DNA of 64,000 nucleotides, taken from Flavobacteriales bacterium. GTDB taxonomy: Bacteria; Bacteroidota; Bacteroidia; Flavobacteriales_F; PHOS-HE28. The stretch covers positions 224,794-288,793 of the forward strand of contig JAHBUK010000004.1 of NCBI GenBank assembly GCA_019638115.1, read 5' to 3'. The notes beneath the pieces were generated by a model. That model was not told where the DNA came from. It made no database searches and was given only the letters and a program-made list of their open reading frames with translations. Of this stretch, positions 1-56,839 are shown piece by piece. The first letter of the stretch is position 1, and the number at the start of each line of letters is the position of its first letter. Made by a program: the position numbers and the translations under genes.

Positions 1-293
1 CCACCAGCGCCAACTTGGTGGTACTGGTCAACGGCATCATCACCAACCTGTCCGATGCGCAGGCCGCCGACCTGCCACGCTTCTTCCTGCACCCCCACAC
101 ACGGCAGTTGCACTTGTTCGGTGGCCAGCAAGTACAAGCGCTCAGCATCGCGGACATGCAAGGGCGCGTGGTGCGTTACGGCACGCTCGGCGACCGCAAC
201 TGGGACCTTGCCGCCCTGCCCACCGGCGTATACCTGCTGCAGGCCCTGGTGGATGATGTGCCCGTGAGCACCCGCGTGCTGCTGGAGCATTGA
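1..293 (+). CDS. C-terminal fragment of a secreted protein with T9SS (Por) C-terminal sorting domain; 5' end lies outside the window
   Basis: Frame open from position 1. The tail GVYLLQALVDDVPVSTRVLLEH resembles the Por_Secre_tail beta-sandwich ends seen in other T9SS cargo proteins in this window. Confidence 0.45.
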   Translation, partial: TSANLVVLVNGIITNLSDAQAADLPRFFLHPHTRQLHLFGGQQVQALSIADMQGRVVRYGTLGDRNWDLAALPTGVYLLQALVDDVPVSTRVLLEH

Positions 294-555
294 GCGTGGG
301 GCGGACTTCCCCGGTCGCTGGGCGCATCGCGCAGGAGAAGGCTGCGGTCGGGTCGATCGCTGCGCTGGAGGAATTCTGCGGTGGATGAACCTTGGGGAAA
401 TGCAACCGCGGATGACGCAGATATCGCAGATGAACACAGGAGGATGGGATATCTGCGAGATGTGCGTCGTCTGCGACCAACACCTCGTCCACACCTACCT
501 GCTGCAGGTAACAGAAGCCTCTACGGATCCGCCCTGCCGACTACTTTCGCGAACC

Positions 556-2190
556 ATGGCCCACGACCTCGACTTCAACAAGAACGAAGACCACAACAAG
601 CTCGCCCTCAGCGACCTCAACAAGCGCCTGCGCAAGATCCACGAGGGCGGCGGCGAAAAGCGCATCGCCAAGCTCAAGGCCGACGGCAAGATGACCGCCC
701 GCGAGCGCATCGATGCCCTGCTCGACCCCAAGAGCCCGCGCATCGAGATCGGCGCCTTCGCGGCCGACGGCATGTACAAGGAGCACGGAGGTGCCCCCTG
801 CGCCGGTGTGGTGGTGGTGATCGGCTATGTGAGCAAGCGCCAGTGCATCGTGGTGGCCAACGACGCCACCGTGAAGGCCGGCGCCTGGTTCCCCATGACC
901 GGCAAGAAGAACCTGCGCGCCCAGGAGATCGCCATCGAGAACCGGCTGCCCATCATCTACCTGGTGGACAGCGCCGGCGTGTACCTGCCCATGCAGGACG
1001 AGATCTTCCCCGACAAGGAGCACTTCGGCCGGATCTTCCGCAACAACGCCGTGATGAGCTCCATGGGCATCACGCAGATCGCCGCTGTGATGGGCAGCTG
1101 CGTGGCCGGTGGCGCCTACCTGCCCATCATGAGCGACGAGGCCCTCATCGTGGAGAAGACCGGCAGCATCTTCCTCGCCGGCAGCTACCTGGTGAAGGCC
1201 GCCATCGGTGAGGACATCGACAACGAGACCCTCGGCGGCGCCACCACCCACAGCGAGATCAGCGGCGTTACCGACTACAAGTGCAAAGACGATGCGGATT
1301 GCCTCAAAAAGATCCGCGCCATCATGGACAAGCTCGGCAAGCCGAAGGACGCGGGCTTCAGTCGCGAGAAACCCGCAGCGCCCAAGGCCGATCCGAAAGA
1401 GATCTACGGCATCCTGCCGAGCGAGCGCGCCAAGCCCTACGACATGCGCGAGGTGATCGCGCGGCTGGTGGACGACAGCGACTACACCGAGTACAAGGAA
1501 GGCTTTGGCCAGAGCATCATCACCGCCTACGCCCGCATCGACGGCTGGGCCGTGGGCATCGTGGCCAACCAGCGCAAGGTGGTGAAGAGCAAAAAGGGCG
1601 AGATGCAGTTCGGCGGCGTCATCTACAGCGACAGCGCCGACAAGGCCACGCGCTTCATCGCCAACTGCAACCAGAAGAACATCCCGCTGGTCTTCCTGCA
1701 GGACGTCACCGGCTTCATGGTGGGCAGCCGCAGCGAGCACGGCGGCATCATCAAGGACGGCGCGAAGCTGGTGAACGCCGTGAGCAACAGCGTGGTGCCC
1801 AAGTTCACCGTGATCGTGGGCAACAGCTACGGCGCCGGCAACTACGCCATGTGCGGCAAGGCCTACGACCCGCGCCTGATCGTGGGCTGGCCCAGCGCCC
1901 AGGTGGCCGTGATGGGCGGCGACCAGGCCGCCAAGGTGCTGCTGCAGATCGAAGTGGCGGCGCTGAAAGGGCGGGGCGAGGAGATCACCAAGGAGCGCGA
2001 GGCCGAGATCCTCGGCAAGATCCGTGCGAAGTACGAGGAGAGCATGAGCCCGTATTACGCGGCGGCAAGGTTGTGGCTGGATGCGATCATCGATCCGTTG
2101 GAGACGAGGACGTGGATCAGTTTGGGGATAGAGGCGGCCAGCCAGAGCCCGGCGACGCGGGAGTTTAATATGGGGGTGTTGCAGACGTAG
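556..2190 (+). CDS. acyl-CoA carboxylase carboxyltransferase subunit (propionyl-CoA carboxylase beta / methylmalonyl-CoA decarboxylase alpha-like)
   Basis: 544 aa. The N-terminus KLKADGKMTARERIDALLDPKSPRIEIG and the later KTGSIFLAGSYLVKAAIGE and GGVIYSDSADKATRFIANCNQKNIPLVFLQDVTGFMVG segments match carboxyltransferase-domain proteins. Start chosen at the ATG at 556 (MAHDLDF...) inside the longer track ORF. Confidence 0.85.
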   Translation: MAHDLDFNKNEDHNKLALSDLNKRLRKIHEGGGEKRIAKLKADGKMTARERIDALLDPKSPRIEIGAFAADGMYKEHGGAPCAGVVVVIGYVSKRQCIVVANDATVKAGAWFPMTGKKNLRAQEIAIENRLPIIYLVDSAGVYLPMQDEIFPDKEHFGRIFRNNAVMSSMGITQIAAVMGSCVAGGAYLPIMSDEALIVEKTGSIFLAGSYLVKAAIGEDIDNETLGGATTHSEISGVTDYKCKDDADCLKKIRAIMDKLGKPKDAGFSREKPAAPKADPKEIYGILPSERAKPYDMREVIARLVDDSDYTEYKEGFGQSIITAYARIDGWAVGIVANQRKVVKSKKGEMQFGGVIYSDSADKATRFIANCNQKNIPLVFLQDVTGFMVGSRSEHGGIIKDGAKLVNAVSNSVVPKFTVIVGNSYGAGNYAMCGKAYDPRLIVGWPSAQVAVMGGDQAAKVLLQIEVAALKGRGEEITKEREAEILGKIRAKYEESMSPYYAAARLWLDAIIDPLETRTWISLGIEAASQSPATREFNMGVLQT

Positions 2191-3039
2191 GTCGTTTGGG
2201 CGTGTCGGCTCGAAGACTCGCCGTCGCGCTTTCCGCTCATACTCCTCGCGTGGATTACCACGCTGCGGGGTATCCGCTCCAATCGCTCACGCGGTAAGAA
2301 TCTCGTGTTCGAATAACCAAGTCGATAAATCTTGAACATCTTTAGGCTGTGAATACCGGAATTTTCATCTTCACACGTGATAGTCCAAGACGCGTTGCCA
2401 AGTGTTTGGAGGGAATCTCCGCAACTCCACATCGCAGGTTTGTCGTAGACGATTCTTCCGAACCGCAGCATCGAGACGAAGTCAAAGAATTGTGTGTTAC
2501 CCTAGGTCACGAATACCTCGGCGGAATCGAGTATGAGAGATTTCTGAATGAACGACGTATCTCTAAGGCCGACTTCTCCTTCCTTGTTCGTGAACCCGGC
2601 TTTCCGGAATGGAATCTCGGATTCGCTCGGAACTATGCGCTCCTCAAGGCACACTCAATTGGACTTGACCGGGTCTTGTTTATGGACGATGACATTCAGG
2701 TCCCTGCAATCTCCCTCATCGATGAGTTCTTTCAGCGGGTGGGAAGTACTTCGTTCGTTGGAGCCAAAGTCGATGGCGCTGTGGACCTTTCTCTGTTGGG
2801 GCACATTGCCGCTGAGGCTGGCATGACGAACCCGGAAATGCTCTCAGGTGGCTTCCTGGCTTTTAACCCCGCAACGGTCACGGAACATTTCGTCAATGTC
2901 TACAACGAAGATTGGATCTGGCTCCTTCTCCAAGTCAATCGGCAAAACTTCACTCAGCATGGCTCGGTTATACAGGACTATACTGTAAGCTTCCCCTGTT
3001 TTCGGGCCGATCATAACTAGAGGCTCCAGGGGCATCGGG

Positions 3040-3813
3040 TTAGGGTTGGATCAGCGCTGGTGGCCGGTAGCCTAGCGACTTGTGTGGGCGGTGATGGTTA
3101 TAGTCGTTCATCCACTCATCGGCTTTCTCACGCACCTCGTCCAAGGTACGGAACACGTAGGCGCTGAGCAGTTCGCGACGCATGCTGCCATTGAGGCGTT
3201 CCACGTAGGCGTTCTGTGTGGGCTTTCCAGGCTGGATGTAGGTCAAGGTGATGCCGTTTGCGCGGCACCAGTGGTCGAGCTTTGCGCTGATGAATTCCGG
3301 GCCGTTGTCCACGCGGATCATCTTTGGCAGCGGACGCACTGCTTTGATGCGTTCCAGCACACGTATCACGCGCAGGGCGGGCAAGGAGGTATCCACCTCG
3401 ATGGCAAGCACCTCCCGGTTGTAGTCGTCGATCACATTAAGCAAGCGGTACGAGCGTCCATCCCAGAGGCTGTCATGCATGAAGTCGATGCTGTAGACCT
3501 GGTCCGGACCCTCGGGACGGAACAGGGCCTGCTTTACCCGTGCAGGCAGCCGTTTCTTGGCCCTGCGCCGGATGTTCAGGCCCAGGCTGGTGTAGACCCG
3601 GTATACCCGCTTGAAGTTCCATAGGTGGCCCATCAAGCGCATCCGATGATGGCTTTGCCATACCCCGATGGCAGGGTGTTTCTGGGTGAGCTGCTCCAAG
3701 GCCTGGATAATGGGCGTGTCATCCGGTGGTGTCTTGCGGTACTGCGCGGTGCTACGCGCCAAGCCCACGCTATTGCAGGCCTGGCGCTCGGAGATGCTGT
3801 GCTCCTGTATCAT
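3040..3813 (-). CDS. IS3-family transposase OrfB (rve integrase core, DDE)
   Basis: 257 aa with ...[34 protein letters not shown]...[11 protein letters not shown]...[23 protein letters not shown]. The upstream frame stays open for ~10 codons into the orfA 3' end. Confidence 0.85.
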
Positions 3814-3838
3814 CGCCTGAACGATCTCGCGCTTCTCG

Positions 3839-4174
3839 TCAGGCGCCCCACTTCTTTTCCACCACGCTCTTCAAGGCGTCATGGACCATGCTCAGCTCCG
3901 CATACATGCGCTTCAAGCGGCTGTTCTCCTCTTGAAGGTCCTTCAGTTGCTTGAGCTGGCTTGCGTCCAGGCCGCCATACTTCGCCTTCCACTGGTAGAA
4001 GGTCGCGTTGCTGATCTCGTGCTCTCGGCAGAGGTCGGCCACCTTCACGCCCGCTTCATGCTGCTTAAGGATGCCGACGATCTGGTGTTCGGTGAACTTG
4101 CTCTTTCTCATGGCTACTTGGTGTTGAAAGTAACCCCTGGCCGGCCAAAGTGATCCTTGGCCCCGCGGGGCCAA
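3839..4174 (-). CDS. IS3-family transposase OrfA (helix-turn-helix/leucine-zipper part)
   Basis: 111 aa: [47 protein letters not shown]...[22 protein letters not shown]. This is a classic IS3/IS911 OrfA signature. Confidence 0.85.
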
Positions 4175-4575
4175 GGATCACTTCACCTCCAGTAATGAGT
4201 GGCCGAACTTTGGGAAAGCTTACAATACCGATCCGTTCGATGGCTTCCAATCAAAGGTCCTCTTTCAGGAACACGGTGAACTTCTTGTCGACGGGCTTCT
4301 GGATGTCTATGAAACCGATTCGTATGACAGATTGAGAGATGTTGACTTTTGGAAGCGCGTGCTGGTCGAGCGAGCCAACTACCTTGAGGAGCTATTCAAC
4401 CAGTGTCTTGCTCATCAACACACCAAAGGAATCGAAATCCTTAACTACTTGGCAGAGAAAAAACCCTCGATCAGGGCCGAAGAACTTGTGCTTCAATTCA
4501 CGACATATATACATGACGTCGAAGCCTTCAGAACGCTCTTCGCATCAATGCGAGAACCACTATCCACACCAAAGT

Positions 4576-4800
4576 CTACTTGAAACGTTCATTGATGGCC
4601 TTCATGGTAGTGTACAGCATAATCTCATCGTCCTGCAAAACCACTCCATATTCCCTTTCCAGTACCCCAATTATGGCCACATGATTGAGGCTGTCCCAAC
4701 TTGCGTGAACCCCCATGCCAGACTCATCGCTGAGCGTATTCGCATCGACCTTGAGCAACTCTGCGATAATATCTCTAGGTGATCGTGGTGTCTTGGTCAT
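4576..4800 (-). CDS. stand-alone acyl/aminoacyl carrier protein (phosphopantetheine-binding)
   Basis: 74 aa. The GVHASWDSLNHVAIIGVLEREYGV stretch has the DSL serine motif of ACP/PCP/DltC-type carriers. It overlaps the upstream adenylation gene by 4 nt. Confidence 0.7.
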   Translation of the reverse strand: MTKTPRSPRDIIAELLKVDANTLSDESGMGVHASWDSLNHVAIIGVLEREYGVVLQDDEIMLYTTMKAINERFK

Positions 4801-6248
4801 GGTTGGTGCTTCTCTAAGGCGGTGTAGTCAATCTTCATATTGATGTTCCTGGGCAAAGACGGAAGCGATACGAAGGCACGAGGTTGCTTGAAGTCTTCGA
4901 GCTTCTGCTTTAGCAACTCTCTGAGGCTCGCCTCCTCAACGGGCTTGTCACTTTCGATGAAGGAATAAAGCCCATCAGAAATCTTGACCGTGGCACTTGC
5001 AAGTCCCGTATGCTTTGTAATCCAGTAGTCAATCTCAGCAGGTTCAACGCGATAACCGCGAATCTTGGTCTGGCGATCCTTCCGTCCTTGGAAATAGACA
5101 TTGTCGCCTTGCTCAGCAATGAGGTCACCGGTAACAAATGTTCGCTGCTCAATGCCGCCGATCTCCTGGGTACCGAATCCGTTGTTCTCAGGCAGGCCCA
5201 GGTATCCCTTGCCGATATGATCACCGTAGAGGATCACATCCAAAAGGCCTGACTCGTCGCTAGGTCTCGTAAGTATATTCCATCCGGGTATAGGTTTACC
5301 AATGCTTGCGGTTGTTCTACAATGGTTCTTGTAGGTTTCCACACCAAGCTCTTGCCAGGTGCAAAACAGCGTCCCCTCCGTTGGGCCGTATGTGTTGAAG
5401 ACTGTAACAGCCGGGTTTCTCTCGAATACAAAGTCAAGTTGATGCATCTTCAGAGCCTCGCCACAAAAGCTCATTAGCCTGAGGGAACTGAGATCAACAG
5501 ACTTGGTTTGGTTCCGAGTGATCATGAACTCCACGACGCTTGGGACCGAGTGCCAAATGGTAAGCCTATGCTTCTCAACCAAAGACCAAGGCACTCCTTT
5601 ATTCGCTTGAGCGTACGCAACCAACGTTGCCCCAGAACCAAGACATGTAAAGATGTCGACTATGCTCAAGTCAAAGCTCAGCAACGAAAACTGGGCCCAA
5701 AGGTCTGCCTCAGTAGCGCCATAGGTTGGTATCGACCACTCCAGAAACTTGTTCAAGCCCCGTCTGTAGATCTCCACGCCCTTGGGAGTTCCCATAGATC
5801 CAGAAGTGAATATGACATACGCACTTGCCTCTGGTTCAACTGTGACCCTGTCCACAATTGGTTCAGTCTTGGCGGACCTAAGTGTGCCGATGTATGTTGC
5901 ACGTCGACTAGAATAGTCCTCGGCCACCCTGTCTTCGCTCAATACCAATACGTCAGCCCCAAATGCCTCAATCATTTGATTCTTCCTCTCGATAGGTGCG
6001 AGTGGGTTCAGTGGACAGAACACCCCGCCGACGTATAACACGGCAATCTCCAGAGCGTATGCATCAACCCCCTGTAGCAGGTCGAAGGCAACCTTTGGCC
6101 TTGGGCCATACTTGGACAAGCCTGAGGCAAGCTCCAATACGAGGCCATGTAGCTCCGAATAGCTGACAGAGCGATCTCCTTCTATAACTGCAAGCGCAGA
6201 TGGCTTCGCCTCGACGGTCTCAATGAAATGGTCCAGGCAGTCCTTCAT
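4797..6248 (-). CDS. stand-alone AMP-dependent adenylation enzyme (ANL superfamily; DltA / amino-acid or aryl-acid adenylation type)
   Basis: 483 aa with the core motifs FTSGSMGTPKGV, YGPTEGT, GDL..., and RKDRQTKIRGYRVEPAEID. It has no condensation or thiolation domain of its own. Confidence 0.85.
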   Translation of the reverse strand: MKDCLDHFIETVEAKPSALAVIEGDRSVSYSELHGLVLELASGLSKYGPRPKVAFDLLQGVDAYALEIAVLYVGGVFCPLNPLAPIERKNQMIEAFGADVLVLSEDRVAEDYSSRRATYIGTLRSAKTEPIVDRVTVEPEASAYVIFTSGSMGTPKGVEIYRRGLNKFLEWSIPTYGATEADLWAQFSLLSFDLSIVDIFTCLGSGATLVAYAQANKGVPWSLVEKHRLTIWHSVPSVVEFMITRNQTKSVDLSSLRLMSFCGEALKMHQLDFVFERNPAVTVFNTYGPTEGTLFCTWQELGVETYKNHCRTTASIGKPIPGWNILTRPSDESGLLDVILYGDHIGKGYLGLPENNGFGTQEIGGIEQRTFVTGDLIAEQGDNVYFQGRKDRQTKIRGYRVEPAEIDYWITKHTGLASATVKISDGLYSFIESDKPVEEASLRELLKQKLEDFKQPRAFVSLPSLPRNINMKIDYTALEKHQP

Positions 6249-7411
6249 TGCTCACGCTCAATTGGAAATATCCAGTCCTCTTTGATATCGGGACACATCA
6301 CATCTTGCTCATGCACGTTTACCTCAAAGAAGCACTCGAAGGCGGCTTGTCGGACATCATCAAGATTGAACTTCCTCAACACCTTCCGAATGTTGCTTTG
6401 TGCGGAAGGATGGTCTGAGAACGCCTTTGCCGCGCCTAATACACCGAAGGTGTGAAGTCCATTGATGAGAACAACTGAACTCTTAGGATTGAAAGGATTC
6501 GGATAGCGCGCGAAGTATCCCCAATCCTTAACCGTCTTGTTACCCTCTCTCGTGGCCACGTACTTGCTTCCGCCAAAAAGCAGTTCCTCGCAATCGTCTG
6601 AGTAACTCACTCTCCCGTTCATTCTCTCCATCATAGTCTTACAAATCCTATTGCCATCTCCCCCCTCTTCACCGGGTCCGCCAATGACAACTAAGTTCCC
6701 TTCTATTGATGCGGAGAATGCATCAGCAGCGTACATGGGCGTTTCTATGCTGCGATAGTTTCGATGCATGAATGTCATCACCCACAATAGTGCGTCGCGA
6801 TCACCTAAGCTTTCAAGGAGCATCCAGTTCTCAGACTTAGGATCGGCATACTGCATTCGCTTCTCCGATTCAGAGGAAGTCACCACATGAACTAACCCCA
6901 CACCTGCAGGAAACCACAGCTTATTGAGGTATATGCTGTAGAGAGCATCGCCTTCAATCAGCTTCTTGAAGTGAGTCGCGAGTTCTTCCACAGTTGCCTC
7001 GACTAGTGCGTCCATGGTTTTGTACACTACGGGTAATCGATCCTTGATGTCTGCAGGAATTGGGAAGGTCACCATCGACGCTTCTGCCTTCATCAAGACG
7101 ACGGGTTTGTTCAGTCCATATAACAAACCGTACTCAAAGAAGATGTTTGGTTTACTCTCTGTGATATCTACCAGAGCCACGTGTGCCTTCCTTATCTGTG
7201 CTTCAATTTGCTGAGGTAGCCCCTGAAACACATCGCTGAAAGTGTATGTCGTTTCAATCTCGAAGTCTTGATAGTCCCTTCGCACCAAGCTCTCTGCTTT
7301 GGTAATGAGCAACTCCACCTTCGTTCTGAACGTGTCCAAATCATACGTCGGGTTCTTCGGCTCGAATGGGTGCGATACGAAGATGTTGATCTGTCTATAA
7401 CTTTTACTCAT
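6245..7411 (-). CDS. hypothetical two-domain protein; N-terminal ~130 aa resembles the nucleoside 2-deoxyribosyltransferase / TIR-like (SLOG-type) fold; C-terminal domain unassigned
   Basis: 388 aa. NIFVSHPF...AHVALVDITESKPNIFFEYGLLYGLNKPVVLM resembles the D...N...FE(L/Y)G...G.KPV signature of deoxyribosyltransferase-like domains. It is translationally coupled on both sides (4-nt overlaps) and low in GC. Confidence 0.5.
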   Translation of the reverse strand: MSKSYRQINIFVSHPFEPKNPTYDLDTFRTKVELLITKAESLVRRDYQDFEIETTYTFSDVFQGLPQQIEAQIRKAHVALVDITESKPNIFFEYGLLYGLNKPVVLMKAEASMVTFPIPADIKDRLPVVYKTMDALVEATVEELATHFKKLIEGDALYSIYLNKLWFPAGVGLVHVVTSSESEKRMQYADPKSENWMLLESLGDRDALLWVMTFMHRNYRSIETPMYAADAFSASIEGNLVVIGGPGEEGGDGNRICKTMMERMNGRVSYSDDCEELLFGGSKYVATREGNKTVKDWGYFARYPNPFNPKSSVVLINGLHTFGVLGAAKAFSDHPSAQSNIRKVLRKFNLDDVRQAAFECFFEVNVHEQDVMCPDIKEDWIFPIEREQ

Positions 7412-8023
7412 CTAACACCTCGTTTTGAACATCCCGCGATACTTCGCCAAAGGCTGAATCTGACCGCCTACCAATATCATTCCCTCTCCGACATCTGTGC
7501 GCACTGTCTCGCCTGCGCCAACATATGCACATGGACCAATCTTCCTTGGGCCGATTATCAGGGCATTCACTCCGACAAAGCTCCCACGATACACCACTGG
7601 GGACTCTTCTTCCGTCTCGTCCCAATCGAGAGTTGCGTTGTGATGACTATGAGCTATCTCGCCCATGTAGGTGACATTGTCTTCTATTACGGTGCGGTCC
7701 GCCACATGACCACCGATAATGCAGTGAGCGCCGATCTGAGCATCCTCGGATACGTGCTTGGCATAGAGGACGCGCGTCTTCATTCCCACCTGCGCGCCTC
7801 GACAGACTTTGGAATAGTCGTCTAGGATAACGCCGGTGCGTAGCGTTGCTCCAAGATGCACTGTGCAGAACGCGCCGATAATCACCCCATCCTCGATAAC
7901 CGTTGGCTCGTCTGACTGGTCGCCATAGCCAACGATTGAGCCATGACCTATGGTCACGTCTTTTCCAATCTTGACGTTTGGATGGACATAAATCCCAGAT
8001 CCGATCATACGGTACTCGCTCAT
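7412..8023 (-). CDS. left-handed beta-helix (hexapeptide-repeat) acyl/acetyltransferase
   Basis: 203 aa with repeated [LIV]-G-x-x-x-x hexapeptides: VKIGKDVTIGHGSIVGYG, IIGAFCTVHLGATL, IGAHCIIGGHV, YVGAGETV. Confidence 0.8.
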   Translation of the reverse strand: MSEYRMIGSGIYVHPNVKIGKDVTIGHGSIVGYGDQSDEPTVIEDGVIIGAFCTVHLGATLRTGVILDDYSKVCRGAQVGMKTRVLYAKHVSEDAQIGAHCIIGGHVADRTVIEDNVTYMGEIAHSHHNATLDWDETEEESPVVYRGSFVGVNALIIGPRKIGPCAYVGAGETVRTDVGEGMILVGGQIQPLAKYRGMFKTRC

Positions 8024-8832
8024 AGCGACTCTTCAATGATGCCCAGAGCCGTCTTGTAAATCCCGCGATGGATGAGCTTCGTCTCTGGATGGTTGAGATC
8101 TTCGTCAATCTCAATTCCAAAGCCATGCCCCACCCCTTTTATGATCTCTAGGCGTGTCTTCGGTGACTTGTGCTTCTTCGACGAAGTCAGCGGCACATCT
8201 TCGTCATCACTTCCATGAAAAATGACCACGCGCGAACCAAGATTCGACAGAGCCTGGATTCCGTTCACGTAGGGCAGTTCATTGATTAACGCACGGCCGA
8301 AACGTATCCCCGATGACTTAAGAAATCCGTGTTTGTCTAGCTGGCGGACGGCTGCCGGGGTTAAGCCCTTCTCCGTTACCAACTTGTTCCGTTCAAGGAC
8401 ATCGTTCTGGTAGTTGAGCACTGGCGCGTTGAGAATCACCTTCCTGATCTGCTCCTGCCGAGTGGTGTCCACCCAGTAAGCCGCGAGCCCCCCTCCGAAA
8501 CTGGTACCCACCAGGAAGAACCGCTTCGTACTTCGCTTGACACCTTCAGCCAGGGCGGTGTACGCAGCGGAAACGTCATTCACTATACCACTCAGCGTAA
8601 GCTCTTCAAGAGTGGTTTCGTGAACACCGTGAAAGCGATAGTCGAACCTGAAAGACGATACTCCATTTTCGGCCAGGTAGTTCGCATAGTCCGAGTGAAA
8701 GCCCAATTCATCACGCGAGGACGTAATACCATGCACAAAAAGAAGTGCCGCCTTTTCTTTGGCCGCTCTTTGCATGGTGCCTTCCAGCTTGTATCCATCG
8801 TAGCTACTGAACTTGATGGTCTCTTCGGTCAT
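8020..8832 (-). CDS. alpha/beta-fold hydrolase (serine hydrolase)
   Basis: 270 aa with an HG oxyanion motif (LLFVHGITSS), the nucleophile elbow GTSFGG, and a C-terminal GVGHGF histidine. Confidence 0.8.
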   Translation of the reverse strand: MTEETIKFSSYDGYKLEGTMQRAAKEKAALLFVHGITSSRDELGFHSDYANYLAENGVSSFRFDYRFHGVHETTLEELTLSGIVNDVSAAYTALAEGVKRSTKRFFLVGTSFGGGLAAYWVDTTRQEQIRKVILNAPVLNYQNDVLERNKLVTEKGLTPAAVRQLDKHGFLKSSGIRFGRALINELPYVNGIQALSNLGSRVVIFHGSDDEDVPLTSSKKHKSPKTRLEIIKGVGHGFGIEIDEDLNHPETKLIHRGIYKTALGIIEESL

Positions 8833-9130
8833 GGGATTCGCCTTTCATTAAGGGTTGACGGCCGATGCTGACTAACGCATGCCGGAAAATCCGTCAAGCG
8901 CCTCAGCTCCAAACATAGTCACTAACACGCAATCTTTGGCGCTATAGCCTCGGTGCTCCGCAGCCCCCCCTCCCGCGGATCTGCGATCCCTGGTTTCGAG
9001 CATGGCACACCCCCTGAACCGGTCCTTTCCCCAATTGGCAGAGTTCTCGCGCGCTGGTGCATTGATCCTATCTTGCTGTCGATAACCTTGCCAGCAAAAC
9101 CGTCGAGACCGGGTTCCAATTTCAACCTTT

Positions 9131-9337
9131 GTGCAAACTGCTGTGGCCGACATCGCTTACATAACCCCGAAGGTCCTTAAGTGGGCACGCACCACGGCCA
9201 GGATGTCGCTGGAGACGGCTGCGGCCAAGGTGAAAGTGACCCCGGAACGCCTGGAGGCTTGGGAGGATCCTGATAGCGCGGACAGGCCGACCATTCGGCA
9301 GGCAGAGAAGCTCGCCTGTTATCGCGAATATCAGTAA
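9131..9337 (+). pseudogene. N-terminal fragment of an HTH (XRE-like) domain of the type fused to ImmA/IrrE-family regulators; the ORF stops after ~68 codons where the conserved continuation is missing
   Basis: ITPKVLKWARTTARMSLETAAAKVKVTPERLEAWEDPDSADRPTIRQAEKLA matches the typical N-terminus I(T/N)PExLKWARE..GLS.EELA....PE.LE.WE.GE..PT..QLEKLA. The normally following (K)(L/V)Y(R/K)RPL...FFL and peptidase domain are absent. Confidence 0.4.
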
Positions 9338-9385
9338 CCCTATCCCCCCGATCGAACCCCTTCCCCCACGCCGTGTACAGGCCGG

Positions 9386-9835
9386 GTGATGCGACTACTG
9401 AACGCCCTCCTACCGCTGCTTCTGTTCGTCCCCTCCCTGCCCGCCACTGCCCAATGGTATGGACAGGGTGATCCCGCGTACCTCTTCCAACGCCTGGCAG
9501 GGCAGATGCAACAGAGTACGGCCGACAGCGCGGCCTTCGCTCGGTTCGGTGAAGCCATGGCGCAGACCACGCTGGACAAGGACCCGCTGCCCGAGCTACG
9601 GGAATACCGAATGGTGTGGGAGGTGAGCTGCGAAGGACGCACGGGGCTACTGCGCGGCGATGGCACCGACCTGATGAGTTTCCTCATGGACCCGCCCGAA
9701 AAGCGCTTCGGTGTGCCGGTGTGCTGTCCACAATTTTATGGCGGGCGCTATGCGGTGGTGCAATGGGCGCCCCCCACAGGCTTGGTGCGCTACCGGTACT
9801 GGTTCTTCGAGCGCACACCACAAAACGATCACTGA
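9386..9835 (+). CDS. hypothetical secreted protein (signal peptide)
   Basis: 149 aa with a hydrophobic N-terminus MMRLLNALLPLLLFVPSLPATAQ. High GC. No recognisable domain. Confidence 0.5.
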   Translation: MMRLLNALLPLLLFVPSLPATAQWYGQGDPAYLFQRLAGQMQQSTADSAAFARFGEAMAQTTLDKDPLPELREYRMVWEVSCEGRTGLLRGDGTDLMSFLMDPPEKRFGVPVCCPQFYGGRYAVVQWAPPTGLVRYRYWFFERTPQNDH

Positions 9836-9851
9836 ACGAAAACAGGAAGCC

Positions 9852-10274
9852 ATGCGCTCCATCCTTCCCCTCGGCTTGTTGCTCCTGGCCAACACCGTCC
9901 AAGCCCAGGACCAGCCCACCCTCCCCGACCCACAGCACGGTTACTTCGGAAGGCCATACTTCGAGAACTCTTCCGATAGCGCGGAATTCATGGATTTCCA
10001 TGCAGGCCTGCAATGGAACGAGACCGTCACTGCCTTGGACACTACGAGCAGAACCTACAAGCTGGTGTGGCGCGAGAACCAGCATGGCGGCCTTAGGATG
10101 GTGTCCCGTGGTAATGGAAGCACGCTGGTACGTTCAACGGGGACCGTGCGCGTAGGCCCCATGCACGATGAAGGCCACTTCCGCACCGCCAGCGGCAAGC
10201 ACGGCATCCTGATCGCTTGGGAAACACCCTGCGGTATGATCTGCCGGACGGCGAGCTATTACGTGGAGGAATGA
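9852..10274 (+). CDS. hypothetical secreted protein (signal peptide)
   Basis: Internal ATG at 9852 gives MRSILPLGLLLLANTVQAQDQ... (140 aa). No recognisable domain. Confidence 0.5.
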   Translation: MRSILPLGLLLLANTVQAQDQPTLPDPQHGYFGRPYFENSSDSAEFMDFHAGLQWNETVTALDTTSRTYKLVWRENQHGGLRMVSRGNGSTLVRSTGTVRVGPMHDEGHFRTASGKHGILIAWETPCGMICRTASYYVEE

Positions 10275-10328
10275 GCGGAATGAGCGCTCCATCGCGTGGC
10301 CGGCAAAGCCGTGGACTAATTTCGGGGC

Positions 10329-10766
10329 ATGGCCAGCAGATCAAGTAAACAAGCGGATGGTACACCCATCACCCTGCTCTCCGGCGGCAACCCACAAATA
10401 CCGAAAGGTCACGGCGATGCCGTGGTGCAGGCCTACATCAATGCCATGCCCGGCTGGAAGCAGGAAGTGGGTATCTGGCTGGACGAGGTGATCATGCGCA
10501 CCCTACCCGGCGTGCGGAAGATGGTGAAGTGGAACACGCCTTTCTATGGACTGGACGGGGAGACCTGGTTCCTGGGCTTCCACTGCCTGAACAAGTACGT
10601 GAAGGTGGCTTTCCTGAAGGGCGCGCACCTGAAGCCGATGCCACCGGGCACCAGCAAGCAGAAGGACCCGCGCTACCTGGACATTTACGAGAACGCCCTG
10701 CCGGATGAGGAGCAGTTCGTGAGCTGGGTGAAGCAAGCGGCGAAGCTGCCGGGGGAGAAGTTGTAG
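10329..10766 (+). CDS. DUF1801 (YdhG-like) domain protein
   Basis: 145 aa. The ...GWKQEVGIWLDEVIMRTLPGVRKMVKWNTPFYGLDGETWFLGFHCLNKYVKVAF pattern is typical of the family. Confidence 0.65.
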   Translation: MASRSSKQADGTPITLLSGGNPQIPKGHGDAVVQAYINAMPGWKQEVGIWLDEVIMRTLPGVRKMVKWNTPFYGLDGETWFLGFHCLNKYVKVAFLKGAHLKPMPPGTSKQKDPRYLDIYENALPDEEQFVSWVKQAAKLPGEKL

Positions 10767-10776
10767 GCCGGACCTT

Positions 10777-10837
10777 GCGGAGAATAGCGGATTTATTCTC
10801 CGCACCTTTTGCGGAGAATATCCGTACCTTTCTCCGC
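10777..10837 (+). terminator. two tandem GC-rich hairpins (GCGGAGAATA-loop-TATTCTCCGC, then GCGGAGA-loop-TCTCCGC), the first followed by CCTTTT; putative intrinsic terminator or operator upstream of the Fic gene
   Basis: A perfect 10-bp stem at 10777..10803 is followed by ACCTTTT. A second 7-bp stem lies at 10811..10837. Both sit between the DUF1801 gene stop (10766) and the Fic start (10854). Confidence 0.45.
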
Positions 10838-10853
10838 AGAAAGCACGACCGTC

Positions 10854-11957
10854 ATGCCCCGCTATGTCCACGAACTGCCCGACTGGCCTGCGTTCCATTG
10901 GGATGCGGAAGCCCTGGCTCCTGCGTTGGCGGCGGTGCATGAGCAGCAGGGCCGCTTGCTGGGGCGCATGACCGCTGTAGGCTTCGACCTGCGCACGGAA
11001 GCCGACTTCCAGACCATGACCACGGACGTATTGCGCACCAGCGAAATAGAGGGCGAGGTGCTGGACCCTGCACAAGTGCGTTCATCCTTGGCCAGGCGGC
11101 TGGGGCTGGATGTTTCCGGCGCTGCACATGTGGACCGCCATGTGGACGGCGTGGTGGAGATGCTGCTGGACGCCACCCGCAACTGCTACGAAAAACTCAC
11201 ACTGGAGCGGCTGTTCGGTTGGCACTCGGCGTTGTTCCCTGCTGGTAGAAGCGGAATGTTGAAGGTGCTCGTGGGCCAACTCCGCGACGATTCCACTGGT
11301 CCAATGCAGGTGGTCAGTGGACCGATGGGACGTGAGAAGGTACACTACCAGGCACCGGCTGCGAAGGGCTTGAAGAAGGATATGACGGCCTTCTTGAAAT
11401 GGGTGAATGGCAAGACAGTGATGGATCCGTTGCTCAAGGCCGGACTTGGGCACTTCTGGTTCGTGACGCTCCACCCGTTCGAGGACGGCAATGGCCGCAT
11501 GGCCCGTGCGGTAGCCGACCTGCTCTTGGCCCGTGCCGATGGAAGCCCACAGCGCTTCTACAGCATGAGCGCGCAGATCAGGAACGAGCGGAAGAAGTAC
11601 TACGACATACTGGAGCGATCACAGCGCAGCAGTTTGGACGTGACCGAATGGCTCGCGTGGTTCCTGGCTTGCCTGGGTCGTACCATGGCCGCTTCGGAAG
11701 CAATGCTCGCCGACGTGCTCAATAAGCACCGCTTCTGGCAAACCCATGCGAAGACGGTATTGAACGCACGTCAAGTGAAGGTGTTGAACAAGCTCTTCCA
11801 GGGCTTCGATGGCAACCTCAGCTCCGGCAAATACGCCAAGCTGGCCAAGACCTCGCAAGACAGTGCCGCGCGCGACCTGGCCGACCTGGTGGCGAAGAAG
11901 GTGATGAAGAAAGCCAAGGCCGGTGGTCGAAGCACGCATTACGTGTTGGTGCGCTGA
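10854..11957 (+). CDS. Fic family protein (filamentation induced by cAMP / AMPylation-type)
   Basis: Fic motif HPFEDGNGRMARAV. N-terminal region of the Fic-N/DUF4172 type. Start taken at the ATG at 10854 (MPRYVHELPDW). Confidence 0.85.
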   Translation: MPRYVHELPDWPAFHWDAEALAPALAAVHEQQGRLLGRMTAVGFDLRTEADFQTMTTDVLRTSEIEGEVLDPAQVRSSLARRLGLDVSGAAHVDRHVDGVVEMLLDATRNCYEKLTLERLFGWHSALFPAGRSGMLKVLVGQLRDDSTGPMQVVSGPMGREKVHYQAPAAKGLKKDMTAFLKWVNGKTVMDPLLKAGLGHFWFVTLHPFEDGNGRMARAVADLLLARADGSPQRFYSMSAQIRNERKKYYDILERSQRSSLDVTEWLAWFLACLGRTMAASEAMLADVLNKHRFWQTHAKTVLNARQVKVLNKLFQGFDGNLSSGKYAKLAKTSQDSAARDLADLVAKKVMKKAKAGGRSTHYVLVR

Positions 11958-11961
11958 TGTC

Positions 11962-12396
11962 ATGGAACCCTACCCGAAGGCATACCTCTACAAGCGCATC
12001 GTGCAGGCCAAACTGCTGATGGACGAACGCTTCATGGAGCGCATTGATGGAGAACTGATCAGCAATGAAGCGGCCTTCTCCCACTCGCATTTCATCCGGT
12101 TGTTCAAGCAGGTGTATGGTGTGGTGCCACGTGTTTACCTGAGCAACTTGCGACTGGACCGAGCGCAACAACTGCTGGACGAAGGATGCTCCGTTGCCGA
12201 TGCCTGCTTGCGTGTGGGGTTCGAGAGCGTGCCCACATTCAGCCGGGCGTTCAAGCGGCGTACCGGCACCACGCCAGCGGCCTACCGCAAGGTCCGCGAG
12301 GAACGGGCGCGGAACATGCAAGAGGAGCCACTGGAGCACATTCCAAACTGTTATGCGATGTGGCTGGGTTGGCCGCAAAAGCGCGATCCAGGATAA
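11962..12396 (+). CDS. AraC-family transcriptional regulator (HTH_18 domain only, ~144 aa)
   Basis: ISNEAAFSHSHFIRLFKQVYGVVPRVYLSNLRLDRAQQLL...VADACLRVGFESVPTFSRAFKRRTGTTPAAYR. Starts 5 nt after the Fic stop. Confidence 0.7.
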   Translation: MEPYPKAYLYKRIVQAKLLMDERFMERIDGELISNEAAFSHSHFIRLFKQVYGVVPRVYLSNLRLDRAQQLLDEGCSVADACLRVGFESVPTFSRAFKRRTGTTPAAYRKVREERARNMQEEPLEHIPNCYAMWLGWPQKRDPG

Positions 12397-26972: not shown

Positions 26973-28313
26973 TCACCTCCTCATCCCCTGCGCCTGCTGC
27001 ATCCGCTGCATCATCGCCTGCATCTTGCTCTTGTCGCCCATCATCTTCATCATCTTCCGGGTCTCGTCGAACTGCTTCAGCAGCTTGTTCACCTCGGGGA
27101 TGTCGCGGCCACTGCCTTTGGCGATGCGCTGACGACGGCTGCCGTTGATCAGGGCCGGGTTCTGGCGCTCCTCGGGCGTCATGCTGCGGATGATGGCTTC
27201 GATGTGCTTGAAGGCGTCGTCCGGGATATCGAGGTTCTTCATGGCCTTGCCCACGCCGGGGATCATGCCCATGAGGTCCTTCATGTTGCCCATCTTCTTG
27301 ATCTGCTGGATCTGCTCCAGGAAATCATCGAAGCCGAACTGGTCCTTGGCGATCTTCTTCTGCAGTTCACGCGCCTGCTTCTCATCGAACTGCTCCTGTG
27401 CGCGCTCCACCAGGCTCACCACGTCGCCCATGCCCAGTATGCGGCCGGCCATACGATCGGGATGGAACTCGTCCAGCGCCTCCATCTTCTCGCCGGTGCC
27501 GATGAACTTGATCGGCTTGTCCACCACGCTGCGGATGGTGAGCGCCGCACCACCGCGGGTATCGCCGTCGAGTTTAGTGAGCACCACGCCGTCGATGTCC
27601 AAGCGGTCGTTGAAGGCCTTGGCGGTATTCACGGCATCCTGGCCGGTCATGGCATCCACCACGAAGAGGGTCTCCTGCGGCTGGCTGGCCTTCTTCACCC
27701 GGGTTATCTCGTCCATCATCGCCTCGTCAACCGCCAGGCGTCCGGCGGTATCGATGATCACGGCCGTGAAGCCGTGGGCCTTGGCGTGGGCGATACCTTT
27801 CTGGGCGATGGCCACCGGGTCCTTGCTGTCGCGATCGCTGAAGACCGTGATGTCCAGCTGTTTGCCGAGCGTTTCAAGCTGGTCTATGGCCGCAGGGCGG
27901 TACACGTCGCAGGCCACCAGCAGGGGCTTCTTGCCTTTCTTGCGCAGGTAGGCCGCTAGTTTTCCACTGAAAGTGGTCTTACCCGAACCCTGCAGACCGC
28001 TCATCAGGACCACCGTGGGGTTGCCACTGAGGTTGATGGCCTGGTTGCGGCCGCCCATCAGTTCGGCCAGTTCGTCGTGCGCGATCTTCACCAGCACCTG
28101 GCCGGGGCTAACGGCCGTAAGCACGTTGGCACCCAGCGCCTTGGCCTTCACACGATCGGTGAATTCCTTGGCGGTCTTGAAGTTCACGTCGGCATCCAGC
28201 AAGGCGCGACGTACCTCCTTCATGGTCTCGGCCACGTTGATCTCGGTGATCTGGCCTTGTCCTTTCAGGACTTTGAACGCTCTTTCGAGCTTGTCGTTGA
28301 GATTCTCGAACAT
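26973..28313 (-). CDS. ffh: signal recognition particle protein Ffh (NG domain + Met-rich M domain)
   Basis: 446 aa with GLQGSGKTT P-loop, DTAGR, TKLDGDTRGG and a C-terminal Met-rich tail MMKMMGDKSKMQAMMQRMQQAQGMRR. Confidence 0.95.
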   Translation of the reverse strand: MFENLNDKLERAFKVLKGQGQITEINVAETMKEVRRALLDADVNFKTAKEFTDRVKAKALGANVLTAVSPGQVLVKIAHDELAELMGGRNQAINLSGNPTVVLMSGLQGSGKTTFSGKLAAYLRKKGKKPLLVACDVYRPAAIDQLETLGKQLDITVFSDRDSKDPVAIAQKGIAHAKAHGFTAVIIDTAGRLAVDEAMMDEITRVKKASQPQETLFVVDAMTGQDAVNTAKAFNDRLDIDGVVLTKLDGDTRGGAALTIRSVVDKPIKFIGTGEKMEALDEFHPDRMAGRILGMGDVVSLVERAQEQFDEKQARELQKKIAKDQFGFDDFLEQIQQIKKMGNMKDLMGMIPGVGKAMKNLDIPDDAFKHIEAIIRSMTPEERQNPALINGSRRQRIAKGSGRDIPEVNKLLKQFDETRKMMKMMGDKSKMQAMMQRMQQAQGMRR

Positions 28314-28589
28314 GTCTGGCTCTTTCTACAGGGACCGCGAAGGTAGTGGGGAGGTGTGAGGTGGCCTCCTTCACAGATCACACCTAACACTTCACACATC
28401 ACATTTCTTTCGGGGGCGTGCCCCTCGCTAAGCCTCGGGTCGGGTCCTCTGCTGTAGCCGACTTGTAAGGGCCAGCGGCTGCGGCGCTGCGGTGGCTTCC
28501 TCCGGTCGCCTCCTCGCTCGCGCCACACCTGCGCTTCGTCAGCGGCAGGCTGCCGCTTCAATCCCTCACGCTGTTAATTTCGTCAACGA

Positions 28590-29981
28590 ATGAAGATCAA
28601 AGCTCCTTTCGAAGGGTACTTCCATGTTCACGAACCTGAAACAGTCCAGGTTGCTGGACGAATCGAGTTCGACGTGATGACAGGTATTCGCCTTACCACA
28701 ATTGGCTCGTTTCATAAAGAGTTCATTCGATCAGGGGGTGAACAACGGTGGAGTTGTATTCATGGCTTCTCAACTAATGGACGGAAACTAACCCTGCTTG
28801 ACTGCAGAGGTCATGAGAACAGCAGTATCCCAGGCATTCCGAAGGGTTCCTACAGCTCGAAGTGTTTACTCGCCGGGCATCAACACTACGACCCTCAAAC
28901 GCCTCAAATCAAGAGCATAGCTTTCCGGATAACATACTTCGATGAATGGCTGAACCGATCCGGGGTTTCCTACGAAGCCAGCAATGAACTTTTCGGAGCC
29001 TTCACCGCAACTCATAAACATCAAGGGGCTATTCAACTCCATTTCGGGCCTCGCTTGAATGTCAGTATCTGGCATCACACGAATACACCCATGTTCGCTG
29101 AACATGATGTGTTGCGCAAGTTCAGTGAACAGGCGTACTTCAATGTTCAGTACTCCGAGCTAAGTACCATCGATCAGGCAATGGAAGACATGTTGATGAT
29201 CAGAGACCTCTTCAGTCTCCTCATGTCCGCACCAATCGTCATCGAGGATGCCGTCGCATTCATCGACGGTGAAAAGGAAGATGATGGTCGACGATTCGAA
29301 CTCTACTTCCCCTTAGGCTATGGATACCCTACCCGAGAGTCACAGCCAAGGCATTACATGCTCTATCCCTACGACGACATCGAGTCATTCATCGGGACGA
29401 CCTTGGAAAAATGGATTGAACTATATCCATCGATAAAGCGTGGGATAGCCTTCTACCACGAATCATATTTCAGCCGATCGCGCCACGCCTTTCAAAAGTT
29501 CATCGACTACGTCTTTAGTTACGAATCAACGAACAGATCGCTACATCCTTTGGAGCGATTCCCAGAGCAGGAGTACACTGCGTTATGCGCCGACCTTCTA
29601 GAGGGATTATCACCAACTCATGGAAACTTTGTTAGAGACATCCTCAAGCACGCTAATCAAGCCTCGCTGCGGCAACGACTCAAAGGCACATTCGAGCGGA
29701 CGGGTCTGGATGAAATATTTGATAGGAAGTCCATAAAGCTTCATACCGACCGGATTGTGAATGCGAGGAACAACATAGTTCACTTTGCGGAGGTGAACAA
29801 TGAAGAGACTGTATCAGAAGAAAACGTGGTCGACTACAATACCCTGGTCCGTATGTTGATCATTGGAGATCTGCTCTTGGCTATCGGCATCCCCAAGGAG
29901 GATATTGCAACTCGGCTGAAACGAGACCCAAATTTCGGCTTCTTGCTTATTGGAAGAAAGCTGAGCACTCTCAGCATTTAG
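28590..29981 (+). CDS. low-GC orphan protein with C-terminal HEPN-type Rx4H motif; candidate abortive-infection/RNase-type defence protein
   Basis: 463 aa, GC clearly below neighbours. The C-terminal KLHTDRIVNARNNIVHFAE contains R-x4-H. No other recognisable domain. Confidence 0.5.
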   Translation: MKIKAPFEGYFHVHEPETVQVAGRIEFDVMTGIRLTTIGSFHKEFIRSGGEQRWSCIHGFSTNGRKLTLLDCRGHENSSIPGIPKGSYSSKCLLAGHQHYDPQTPQIKSIAFRITYFDEWLNRSGVSYEASNELFGAFTATHKHQGAIQLHFGPRLNVSIWHHTNTPMFAEHDVLRKFSEQAYFNVQYSELSTIDQAMEDMLMIRDLFSLLMSAPIVIEDAVAFIDGEKEDDGRRFELYFPLGYGYPTRESQPRHYMLYPYDDIESFIGTTLEKWIELYPSIKRGIAFYHESYFSRSRHAFQKFIDYVFSYESTNRSLHPLERFPEQEYTALCADLLEGLSPTHGNFVRDILKHANQASLRQRLKGTFERTGLDEIFDRKSIKLHTDRIVNARNNIVHFAEVNNEETVSEENVVDYNTLVRMLIIGDLLLAIGIPKEDIATRLKRDPNFGFLLIGRKLSTLSI

Positions 29982-30264
29982 ACCCGAGACCACGTCCAAT
30001 TGCAGCACCCAATCCACCCCGCCCCTCCCGCCCTTCAACCGCTCAACAGTTCCCGCTTCCACCATCACTCGCGTCCCCTTCATTCGCAGCATAAAAGCCA
30101 TCGTCTGCTCGCGTTACGGGCCATCCGAGCAACTGCAAGTCCGAGACGTGCCCTAACCTGCGGCAGGCTTTCGCTTCACCCACACACCGCAAAAGGAGGT
30201 CAAAGACTACAAACTGCCTCGCTTCGATCATTGTCGCGTTCGCCACTTTGCGCACCTTCGCCCC

Positions 30265-49214: not shown

Positions 49215-49217
49215 GAC

Positions 49218-49312
49218 AAGCTCGAACTTGCGTAGGGCTTCCTGAGGCACGAAGGGGCCCTGCGCTTTAGGACGTGGCCGCAGGGTCCCGAAGACGGAGA
49301 CCCTTCGGAGAT
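49218..49312. repeat. REP-like palindromic repeat element (family copy 1) at a convergent gene end
   Basis: ...cttcctgaggcacgaaggggccctgcgctttaggacgtggccgcagggtcccgaagacggagacccttcggag. The GGGRCCCTGCG / CGCAGGGTCCC arms form a stem. Confidence 0.75.
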
Positions 49313-49340
49313 TATGTGATCATGAAGAAACTATAATGAC

Positions 49341-50486: not shown

Positions 50487-50715
50487 GCTCTGATGTGTTC
50501 GGCTGATGAAAGTAGTACATGATCCGTTCCTGTAATGAAGATCCAATGTTTCCAATTGCTCCTGATAAGTCCAATGAGCAATGAAGCTCTCAGGATAACT
50601 ACGAGCCAACCAATGCGCAGATGTTGGCAGCTTGGATCATCACCGCTGGGCATTCAGGCCGATCCGCATTACATTCACGGTCGTACAATTCCATCCACCT
50701 GTTAAATCGCGGTCC

Positions 50716-53556: not shown

Positions 53557-53644
53557 CACCCAGAGATTAGCGCACCCCACGGGATCACGGATCACGAACT
53601 GAGGAGCGTTTGTGTTGGTCCTACTCTTTGGGCCAAGTGTATGG

Positions 53645-53795: not shown

Positions 53796-53809
53796 GTTCC
53801 TGCCAAGGA

Positions 53810-56835: not shown

Positions 56836-56839
56836 CGTA

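Follow-up and report, generated by a model that had tools for sequence, protein, structure and literature searches.

A low-GC block carries a six-gene cassette interrupted by an insertion sequence

We analysed a 64,000-nt stretch of DNA (the window) from a Flavobacteriales bacterium of the PHOS-HE28 lineage (assembly GCA_019638115.1, contig JAHBUK010000004.1, positions 224,794 to 288,793 of the forward strand), in which a foreign low-GC block follows a carboxyltransferase gene (385-2190). The block holds an operon of five minus-strand genes, a sixth gene convergent with the operon (gene 6) and a later insertion sequence (IS) that splits gene 6 (Table 1). In order, the operon encodes an alpha/beta-fold serine hydrolase, a left-handed beta-helix (LbH) acyltransferase, a 388-aa protein that we call the signature protein, a stand-alone adenylation enzyme and a phosphopantetheine carrier protein. 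This block is a copy of a six-gene cassette that is widespread and horizontally mobile and that we consider a candidate defence system. All five minus-strand open reading frames (ORFs) listed in an earlier note, made from the letters of this DNA alone, were recovered exactly. Their coupling turned out slightly looser than the 4-nt overlap claimed there for every junction: ATGA overlaps join the hydrolase and LbH genes, the signature and adenylation genes, and the adenylation and carrier genes, while the LbH and signature genes abut, the TAG of the former being directly followed by the ATG of the latter. No transmembrane segment was detected in any of the six cassette proteins.

The GC content, computed in 500-nt windows, was 0.47–0.53 at 4250-8750, 0.49–0.55 at 2250-3000 and 0.58–0.60 across the IS, compared to 0.60–0.66 in the flanks; the carboxyltransferase gene itself showed 0.62–0.66, and the values returned to 0.60–0.65 past ~8900. 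The contrast noticed earlier was therefore real, although the 45–48% given for the block was slightly too low. GC at third codon positions (GC3) separated the block from its flanks more sharply than overall GC did, the five minus-strand genes having 0.55–0.61, the carboxyltransferase 0.91 and a right-flank gene 0.82; the IS genes were host-like (0.78). Comparison with the relative L037 (Ga0209573_1000126) fixed the left boundary at 2294/2295, and the right boundary was placed by composition alone at ~8870-8950. As the earlier note had reported, no flanking direct or att-type repeats were found at the block boundaries and no tRNA was found in a scan of positions 1-12000; promoter and terminator scans yielded matches at chance level only.

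Table 1 Features of the foreign block and its left border, in window coordinates
Feature	Position	Strand	Length	Remarks
Conserved spacer after the carboxyltransferase stop	2195..2294	.		Aligns with L037; ends exactly at the island boundary
Foreign low-GC block	2295..8900 (right end approximate)			Six cassette genes and a later IS insertion; GC/GC3 contrast, L037 comparison
Gene 6, N-terminal part	2349..2983	+		Probable divergent GT-A glycosyltransferase; interrupted by the IS
IS3-family insertion sequence	2984-4224	-	1241 bp	orfA 3839-4174, orfB 3040-3813
Gene 6, C-terminal part	4229..4583	+		Convergent with the carrier gene, 8-nt overlap
Phosphopantetheine carrier protein	4576..4800	-	74 aa	PP-binding 2.7e-5, over cutoff
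Stand-alone amino-acid adenylation enzyme, DltA/AlmE-like	4797..6248	-	483 aa	AMP-binding 4e-52
Signature protein	6245..7411	-	388 aa	N-terminal TIR/NDT-like domain (~1-160; NDT, nucleoside 2-deoxyribosyltransferase) and new C-terminal domain (~165-388)
LbH (hexapeptide) acyltransferase	7412..8023	-	203 aa	Pfam Hexapep 9e-14
Alpha/beta-fold serine hydrolase	8020..8832	-	270 aa	First operon gene; Pfam Hydrolase_4 2e-15

The gene set recurs as a unit in about 30 unrelated contexts

Scanning one genome per species gave 23 loci, and in 21 of them the gene for the protein with the C-terminal domain of the signature protein adjoined an enzyme module consisting of the adenylation enzyme, carrier, glycosyltransferase, alpha/beta hydrolase and hexapeptide acyltransferase. 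Metagenome look-ups of eight differing architectures gave an adjacent module each time (8/8), complete in six and partial in two, one of the latter being a contig without a recognisable glycosyltransferase and the other a short contig. Cassettes were found in Bacteroidota, Acidobacteriota, Binatia, Planctomycetota and Azospirillum. The order hydrolase-LbH-signature-adenylation-carrier was identical in 13 Bacteroidota and Ignavibacteria genomes (45–67% identity), all with a gene-6 homologue beside the operon, either convergent downstream or upstream; two more Bacteroidota loci were incomplete, one in Roseivirga (L014) having no hydrolase match and one lying at a contig end. All six genes also occur in Binatia, Bryobacterales, Acidobacteriaceae and Pirellulaceae, there in the order adenylation-carrier-gene 6-hydrolase-LbH-signature. 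The Azospirillum version contained the adenylation, carrier, hydrolase, LbH and signature genes, with an aminotransferase and a GT4 glycosyltransferase after them, and gave no match to gene 6. With the same genes together in ~30 unrelated contexts, the proposal that they form a single unit held up, and what had been taken for an idiosyncratic local combination is instead one instance of a conserved cassette with a wide distribution.

The cassette had a lower GC content than its flanks in 20 of 20 loci. Its GC content was 50% here versus 31–36% in most Bacteroidota relatives, and therefore the present copy is partly ameliorated or came from a mid-GC donor.

Some loci carried further genes. In one cassette clade a TANGO2-family gene (Pfam 1e-17) lay directly upstream of the adenylation gene (L027 3561-4277, L030 9943-10653 and L031 5802-6512). 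Two Acidobacteriota loci contained, respectively, TauD-like dioxygenase fragments upstream (L021) and a group II intron reverse transcriptase (L020).

The signature protein joins a TIR-like domain to a conserved core without a family model

The signature protein matched nothing in Pfam or NCBIfam and gave a weak match to the generic TIR-effector model of PADLOC, the sole PADLOC match of any protein of this cassette. AlphaFold predicted two domains; the model of the full-length protein had a pLDDT of 80, that of the C-terminal domain alone 86. The N-terminal domain resembles TIR in its beta-A motif, IFVSHPF, and contains a glutamate, Glu93, that is invariant within the motif NIFFEYG; it had no sequence-level match to the CMP hydrolases MilB and BlsM or to NDTs. 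The IFVSHPF motif and the dispensability of the glutamate in one clade (below) are points of difference from both of these enzyme groups. The earlier note treated the protein as a DRT/SLOG-like oddity in a decoration pathway; it is instead the signature component of the cassette, a TIR/NDT-like domain followed by a new conserved domain.

The C-terminal domain was conserved down to ~30% identity, and its conserved positions comprised GGPG, N254, C257, Y270, E275, D296 followed by GYFARxPNP, GxHTxGVxG, N340 and FE359. On alignment it is the invariant core of the family, and no Pfam or NCBIfam model covers it. The 159 close homologues of the signature protein were all ~387 aa long and 54–79% identical to it, and a HMMER search of 1.84 billion representative proteins yielded 1,532 clusters of varied lengths at E ≤1e-3 and 120 at ≤1e-30. 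Elsewhere the core was fused to CHAT, TIR_2, CAP12/Pycsar TIR, ThsB_TIR, PNP_UDP_1, Metallophos, Mrr_N, EAD5, HTH_3 or an NAD-binding domain, the ThsB_TIR match being weak (9e-4) and seen in one distant homologue only. Members of the CHAT-fused clade had the His-Gly and Cys dyad of CHAT and carried Ala, Val or Leu in place of the N-domain glutamate; the clades lacking CHAT, including Azospirillum, retained the glutamate. This reciprocal loss is the pattern expected of one putative regulatory or recognition core with interchangeable executing domains.

A gene for a 398–412-aa protein with no Pfam or PADLOC match always followed the CHAT-fused signature gene (L016 11761-12957, L019 11752-12948, L022 11845-13041 and L023 11653-12891), and its product may be a CHAT substrate or partner.

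The enzymes of the module keep their predicted catalytic residues

Pfam confirmed the Hydrolase_4, Hexapep, AMP-binding and PP-binding domains recognised earlier, and NCBIfam likewise placed the hydrolase among the alpha/beta hydrolases. The closest solved structures of the hydrolase are feruloyl and cinnamoyl esterases, and its Ser111 (in GTSFGG), Asp210 and His236 triad and HG34-35 oxyanion motif were invariant in 13 divergent cassettes. The LbH protein reached no named family, all NCBIfam matches (NeuD/PglB/VioB and GlmU) being under cutoff; its closest matches in the PDB were the C-terminal domain of GlmU and WlbB, and His125 and His127 were invariant in 10–13 divergent cassettes.

The adenylation enzyme scored 256 bits with the AA-adenyl-dom model and 188 bits with the DltA model, both under cutoff. 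It keeps the FDLS aspartate, which binds the alpha-amino group, and the NMKID lysine (A10), and its pocket segment was closest to AlmE (4oxi, 4e-19), followed by DltA (3e7w, 3.5e-15); AlmE is the glycine-carrier ligase of Vibrio cholerae, and DltA the corresponding enzyme for D-alanine. A cysteine in FCGE is common to all three. The specificity code was derived by alignment to a hand-typed GrsA-PheA fragment, checked solely by the return of the published PheA code DAWTIAAICK, and on this basis it read DLVHSCTLFK in the Bacteroidota cassettes examined (two of them each differing at one position), DLAHSCTIFK in a second clade and DLMQSCTGFK in the CHAT clade. The conservation of these ten-residue codes implies one conserved small amino acid as the probable substrate. 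The identification of a DltA-like adenylation/carrier pair thus stood, the pocket segment being closest to AlmE and DltA. In the carrier, W35-D36-S37 was invariant in 10 divergent cassettes. Judged from these alignments, the presumed catalytic residues are retained by all enzymes of the cassette.

Gene 6 is a probable glycosyltransferase gene split by a recent insertion

When the two parts of gene 6 were rejoined (2349-2983 and 4229-4583), they formed an open frame of 329 aa. Homologues stood beside the operon in nearly all cassettes, with lengths of 314–334 aa in the Bacteroidota type and 361–406 aa in the CHAT type, and their DDS and DDD motifs were invariant. The matches to known families were weak: Glycos_transf_2 (0.002; 18.7 bits against a Pfam cutoff of 23.3), TAGT, the TET-associated glycosyltransferase (0.003), and the PHROG family beta-glucosyl-HMC-alpha-glucosyltransferase (1.6e-4). 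Some sister cassettes have a bona fide GT2 or a GT1 in place of gene 6. Comparison with such a GT2 gave nothing by BLASTP and a marginal hhalign match of 44 aligned N-terminal columns (E 0.006), and a profile search of the PDB gave nothing; we therefore rejected gene 6 as a demonstrable GT2. The earlier description of an IS-disrupted GT2 gene was right in that a glycosyltransferase-like gene belongs to the unit. Gene 6 is a probable divergent GT-A glycosyltransferase, mainly because a glycosyltransferase fills this role in the other examined versions carrying one.

The element in gene 6 has two ORFs (Pfam HTH_Tnp_1 2e-24, and the DDE domain matches rve 3e-19 and rve_3 3e-27), terminal inverted repeats TGTAAGCTTYCCC and a target-site duplication ATAC at 2980-2983 and 4225-4228, which together place it in the IS3 family; it is present in a single copy in the window. 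A Logan contig from another sample (L024, SRR29353002) is 99.99% identical over 13 kb, free of the IS and intact in gene 6, and therefore the insertion is recent and polymorphic. The system is probably disabled in the present genome, because the IS splits gene 6.

The same contig stops at window position 2209, 19 nt past the carboxyltransferase stop and inside the conserved spacer; this end could be a graph branch, e.g. between island-free or differently loaded alleles in that sample. Within the IS, near the end of orfA, lies a perfect 18+18-nt palindrome, AAGTGATCCTTGGCCCCG / CGGGGCCAAGGATCACTT (window 4148-4183).

The cassette occupies a variable slot that accepts defence systems

The cassette was absent after the carboxyltransferase gene in 80 of 80 related loci sharing that flank, and the closest relatives (89–91% nucleotide identity in the flank) carried different cargo there; together with the GC3 contrast, this bears out the acquired origin proposed for the block. 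A look-up of the exact carboxyltransferase protein gave no record. In L037 (89% nucleotide identity), homology ended ~100 nt past the stop codon, at window 2294, and the same slot (L037 9741-11770) contained a low-GC two-gene CBASS made up of a cyclase (3e-102) and a TIR-STING effector (2e-74), with Pfam matches to CAP12-PCTIR_TIR and prok_STING and a LexA-like gene following. In L035 (91% nucleotide identity), the slot was occupied by yet another cargo. This makes the slot a variable hotspot, with defence systems demonstrably among its cargo. The conserved spacer overlaps a minus-strand match to the Rfam motif Flavo-1 that spans the full motif but stays under threshold (2218-2300; 30.8 bits versus a gathering threshold of 42, E 0.002–0.016); the spacer may be structured or may mark the insertion hotspot.

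The flanks of the cassettes varied between loci, with no conserved neighbour common to all. The 144 flanking ORFs from 20 loci included integrases, NikA, SSB, RadC and transposases, and PADLOC recognised among them type IIG restriction-modification, RmrA, PDC-S68, capH, PDC-S53/56/69, PDC-M30B/M41B, MkoA, mad2, Old and AriA. Grouped by family, the flanks held DISARM-like, PARIS, OLD, Mokosh, E1-E2, PD-Lambda-2, CapH/CapP-like and restriction-modification systems and recombinases. At single loci we found an MmeI-type restriction-modification system with an E1-E2 operon and an HTH-M78 regulator; a DrmD-like helicase with an MmeI-like methylase and three serine recombinases; PD-Lambda-2_B directly upstream of the cassette; TraG with a Y1 transposase; and integrases. 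Genes for polysaccharide, teichoic acid or lipid A did not recur near the cassettes in the ~30 contexts.

To the right of the island by ~2 kb, the window contains a Fic/DOC gene (DUF4172 and Fic, 10854-11957), of which the closest relative, L035, retains just a 44-aa C-terminal fragment (10960-11091), and therefore the right flank has itself been rearranged. The GC content was also reduced at ~28000-30000 and ~48000-57000 (0.51–0.54 versus ~0.60), where further acquired segments may lie.

Comparison with known systems

Dlt, which D-alanylates teichoic acids, and AlmE/AlmF, which add glycine to the lipid A of V. cholerae, resemble the cassette in pairing a stand-alone adenylation enzyme (~480–500 aa) with a stand-alone carrier (~75–80 aa). 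They differ from it in their partners, which in the cassette are all soluble: a glycosyltransferase, an LbH protein, an esterase-like hydrolase and a TIR-like protein. The adenylation enzyme is related to DltA without being its equivalog (NCBIfam PRK04813 188.5 bits, cutoff 476; TIGR01734 181.5 bits, cutoff 559.85). Neither DltB (MBOAT) nor DltD was found in the window or in the ~30 related cassettes, and an AlmG-type lipid A acyltransferase was likewise absent, so that the likeness to Alm is confined to the AlmE-like pocket. No Condensation or Thioesterase domain of the kind found in nonribosomal peptide synthetases was matched in Pfam; the cassette has a stand-alone adenylation domain and carrier only. 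Mycothiol (MshA-D) and bacillithiol (BshA-C) are assembled by combining glycosyl transfer, hydrolytic deacylation, ATP-dependent amino-acid ligation and acyl transfer. The cassette is analogous to these pathways in logic only, as its enzyme families are unrelated and its amino acid would be carried on phosphopantetheine.

The sensor-effectors of CBASS, Pycsar and Thoeris (TIR-STING, TIR-SAVED and PycTIR) share with the signature protein the fusion of an effector domain to a conserved, non-catalytic-looking domain. The same effectors (TIR-like, PNP and CHAT) are swapped on the cassette core, and the location in a defence hotspot is also shared. The distant cassette versions whose core is joined to a CHAT domain bearing the His-Gly and Cys dyad resemble SAVED-CHAT and other CHAT-protease effectors; the 388-aa protein of the window has no CHAT, and its core is unrelated to SAVED. 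In PADLOC, no cassette protein matched a CBASS cyclase (CD-NTase) model, the neighbour in L037 serving as a positive control (3e-102), or any component of Thoeris (ThsA with SIR2 or Macro and SLOG, and the TIR protein ThsB). The SAVED, STING and CARF sensor domains of CBASS and type III CRISPR effectors were also not recognised in the cassette.

A candidate defence system

Taking into account the gene content and its conservation, the co-occurrence of the six genes, the domain swapping, the retained catalytic residues, the mobility and the defence-hotspot location, we give roughly even odds (a probability of about 0.5) to the cassette being an undescribed defence (conflict) system, with a sensor-effector protein under the control of an aminoacylated glycoconjugate that the enzymes would make. 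An anti-phage role is the most likely form of such a conflict. The chemistry of the product, its relation to the sensor, the substrate of the effector and the anti-phage role are what we infer, as follows. One half of the system would be the cytoplasmic five-enzyme module, and the other half the 388-aa protein. The adenylation enzyme would activate a small alpha-amino acid, glycine- or alanine-sized, and load it as a thioester on the 74-aa carrier. Gene 6, as a GT-A-type glycosyltransferase, would form a glycosidic bond, and the LbH protein and the serine hydrolase would perform acyl transfer followed by deacylation or release, yielding a small aminoacylated glycoconjugate. The 388-aa protein would recognise this product, or else the loaded carrier, through its C-terminal domain; the executing enzyme would be its TIR/NDT-like N-terminal domain, which contains Glu93 and would act as an N-glycosidase on NAD+ or nucleotides, arresting the infected cell. 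A variant in which the product is an antitoxin restraining the effector was down-weighted and is unlikely, because the IS knock-out of gene 6 is tolerated alongside an unchanged effector gene.

Several points weigh against a defence system. Location in defence islands is guilt by association; in this window, moreover, the flanks are housekeeping genes and form no defence island. The cassette was not found in the phage and plasmid collections INPHARED and PLSDB by tblastn or in a scan of IMG/VR, and the adenylation, carrier, LbH, hydrolase and gene-6 proteins match no model in PADLOC-DB 2.0. We know of no precedent for a five-enzyme route to a signal; the signalling systems known to us use a single synthase. 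The C-terminal domain could be an enzyme rather than a sensor, because many of its invariant residues are polar (Cys, His, Asp, Glu, Asn and Arg), and the glycosyltransferase assignment of gene 6 comes from weak matches and its position in the cassette. The aminotransferase and GT4 added in Azospirillum look biosynthetic, and two Acidobacteriota loci (L020 9869-11566 and L021 10046-11659) encode a protein of the core domain and CHAT in the absence of the module.

Alternative explanations

The best-surviving alternative, which we nevertheless hold unlikely, is that the cassette is a small secondary-metabolite cluster whose product, an aminoacyl or peptidyl nucleoside or a compound resembling an aminoglycoside, could serve as an antibiotic or an anti-phage chemical. 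The NDT/MilB-like domain would then free a nucleobase, as in BlsM and MilB, the glycosyltransferase would attach a sugar to the base or another aglycone, a small amino acid would be added by the adenylation enzyme, carrier and LbH protein, and the hydrolase would mature or release the product. Such a scheme fits poorly with the loss of the catalytic glutamate of the N-domain in the CHAT-fused clade, which retains the rest of the module, and gives no biosynthetic sense to the CHAT, EAD5, Mrr_N and HTH fusions. Nor does a transporter, resistance or regulatory gene recur beside the cassettes, whose flanks are instead defence and mobile-element genes, and the same slot carries a CBASS operon in a relative.

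Hypermodification of DNA or of the nucleotide pool that marks self, in the manner of restriction-modification, appears improbable. Here the GT-A-like protein would glycosylate a base or nucleotide, the aminoacyl module would decorate the sugar, and the 388-aa protein would discriminate or attack unmodified nucleic acid or nucleotides. The likeness of the N-domain to the fold of nucleotide N-glycosidases and transferases, the fusion to Mrr_N in one homologue and the weak matches of gene 6 to the DNA-base glycosyltransferases listed above are in line with it, but these gene-6 matches are far under the family thresholds and sister cassettes use an ordinary GT2 or GT1. In addition, no hydroxymethylase, TET or DNA-binding component recurs, and the genome tolerates a split gene 6 next to an intact putative 'restriction' protein.

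Aminoacylation of a cell-surface glycan (capsule, lipopolysaccharide or a teichoic-like polymer) by a Dlt/Alm-like pathway, altering surface charge or phage receptors and close to the transfer onto a glycan proposed in the earlier note, is the weakest candidate and very improbable: in sequence, the adenylation enzyme and carrier come closest to AlmE and DltA, and a glycosyltransferase and a sugar-acetyltransferase-like LbH protein are present, but there is no membrane transferase (DltB-type MBOAT, DltD or AlmG) and no transmembrane segment in the six proteins, flippase, polymerase and sugar-nucleotide genes never recur in the ~30 contexts, the flanks are rich in defence rather than envelope genes, and the partner that never varies is the protein on which TIR, CHAT or PNP domains are swapped. 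We thus favour defence over surface decoration, because membrane components and a polysaccharide context are missing and the variable domains of the partner protein are standard immune effectors.

Implications

What is new in the cassette is the unprecedented composition of the partner module, set within a defence-island cassette beside a sensor-effector protein. No description of the cassette was found in the full-text literature, a coverage that leaves out most subscription journals, so that a prior description is possible. A more far-reaching proposal, to which we give limited credence, is that the cassette represents a new class of immune signalling, in which a non-nucleotide, aminoacyl-glycoside messenger or licence would be produced by a cyclase-free, carrier-dependent pathway and read by an unmodelled sensor fused to at least eight effector types across several bacterial phyla.

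If the cassette is a defence system, thiotemplate (adenylation/carrier) and sugar chemistry would enter bacterial immunity, which has so far been dominated by nucleotide-derived signals, and the signature protein would bring with it a new ligand-binding or catalytic domain family of at least 1,500 sequence clusters, so far without a model. The effector domains swapped in nature (TIR-like, CHAT, PNP and phosphoesterase) are ready experimental handles, and the slot after the Flavo-1-like spacer downstream of the carboxyltransferase gene is a usable hotspot for mining systems in high-GC Flavobacteriales. Should the product prove to be a metabolite, the cassette would still stand out as a pathway that is unusually compact, has been transferred widely and keeps a conserved adenylation specificity.

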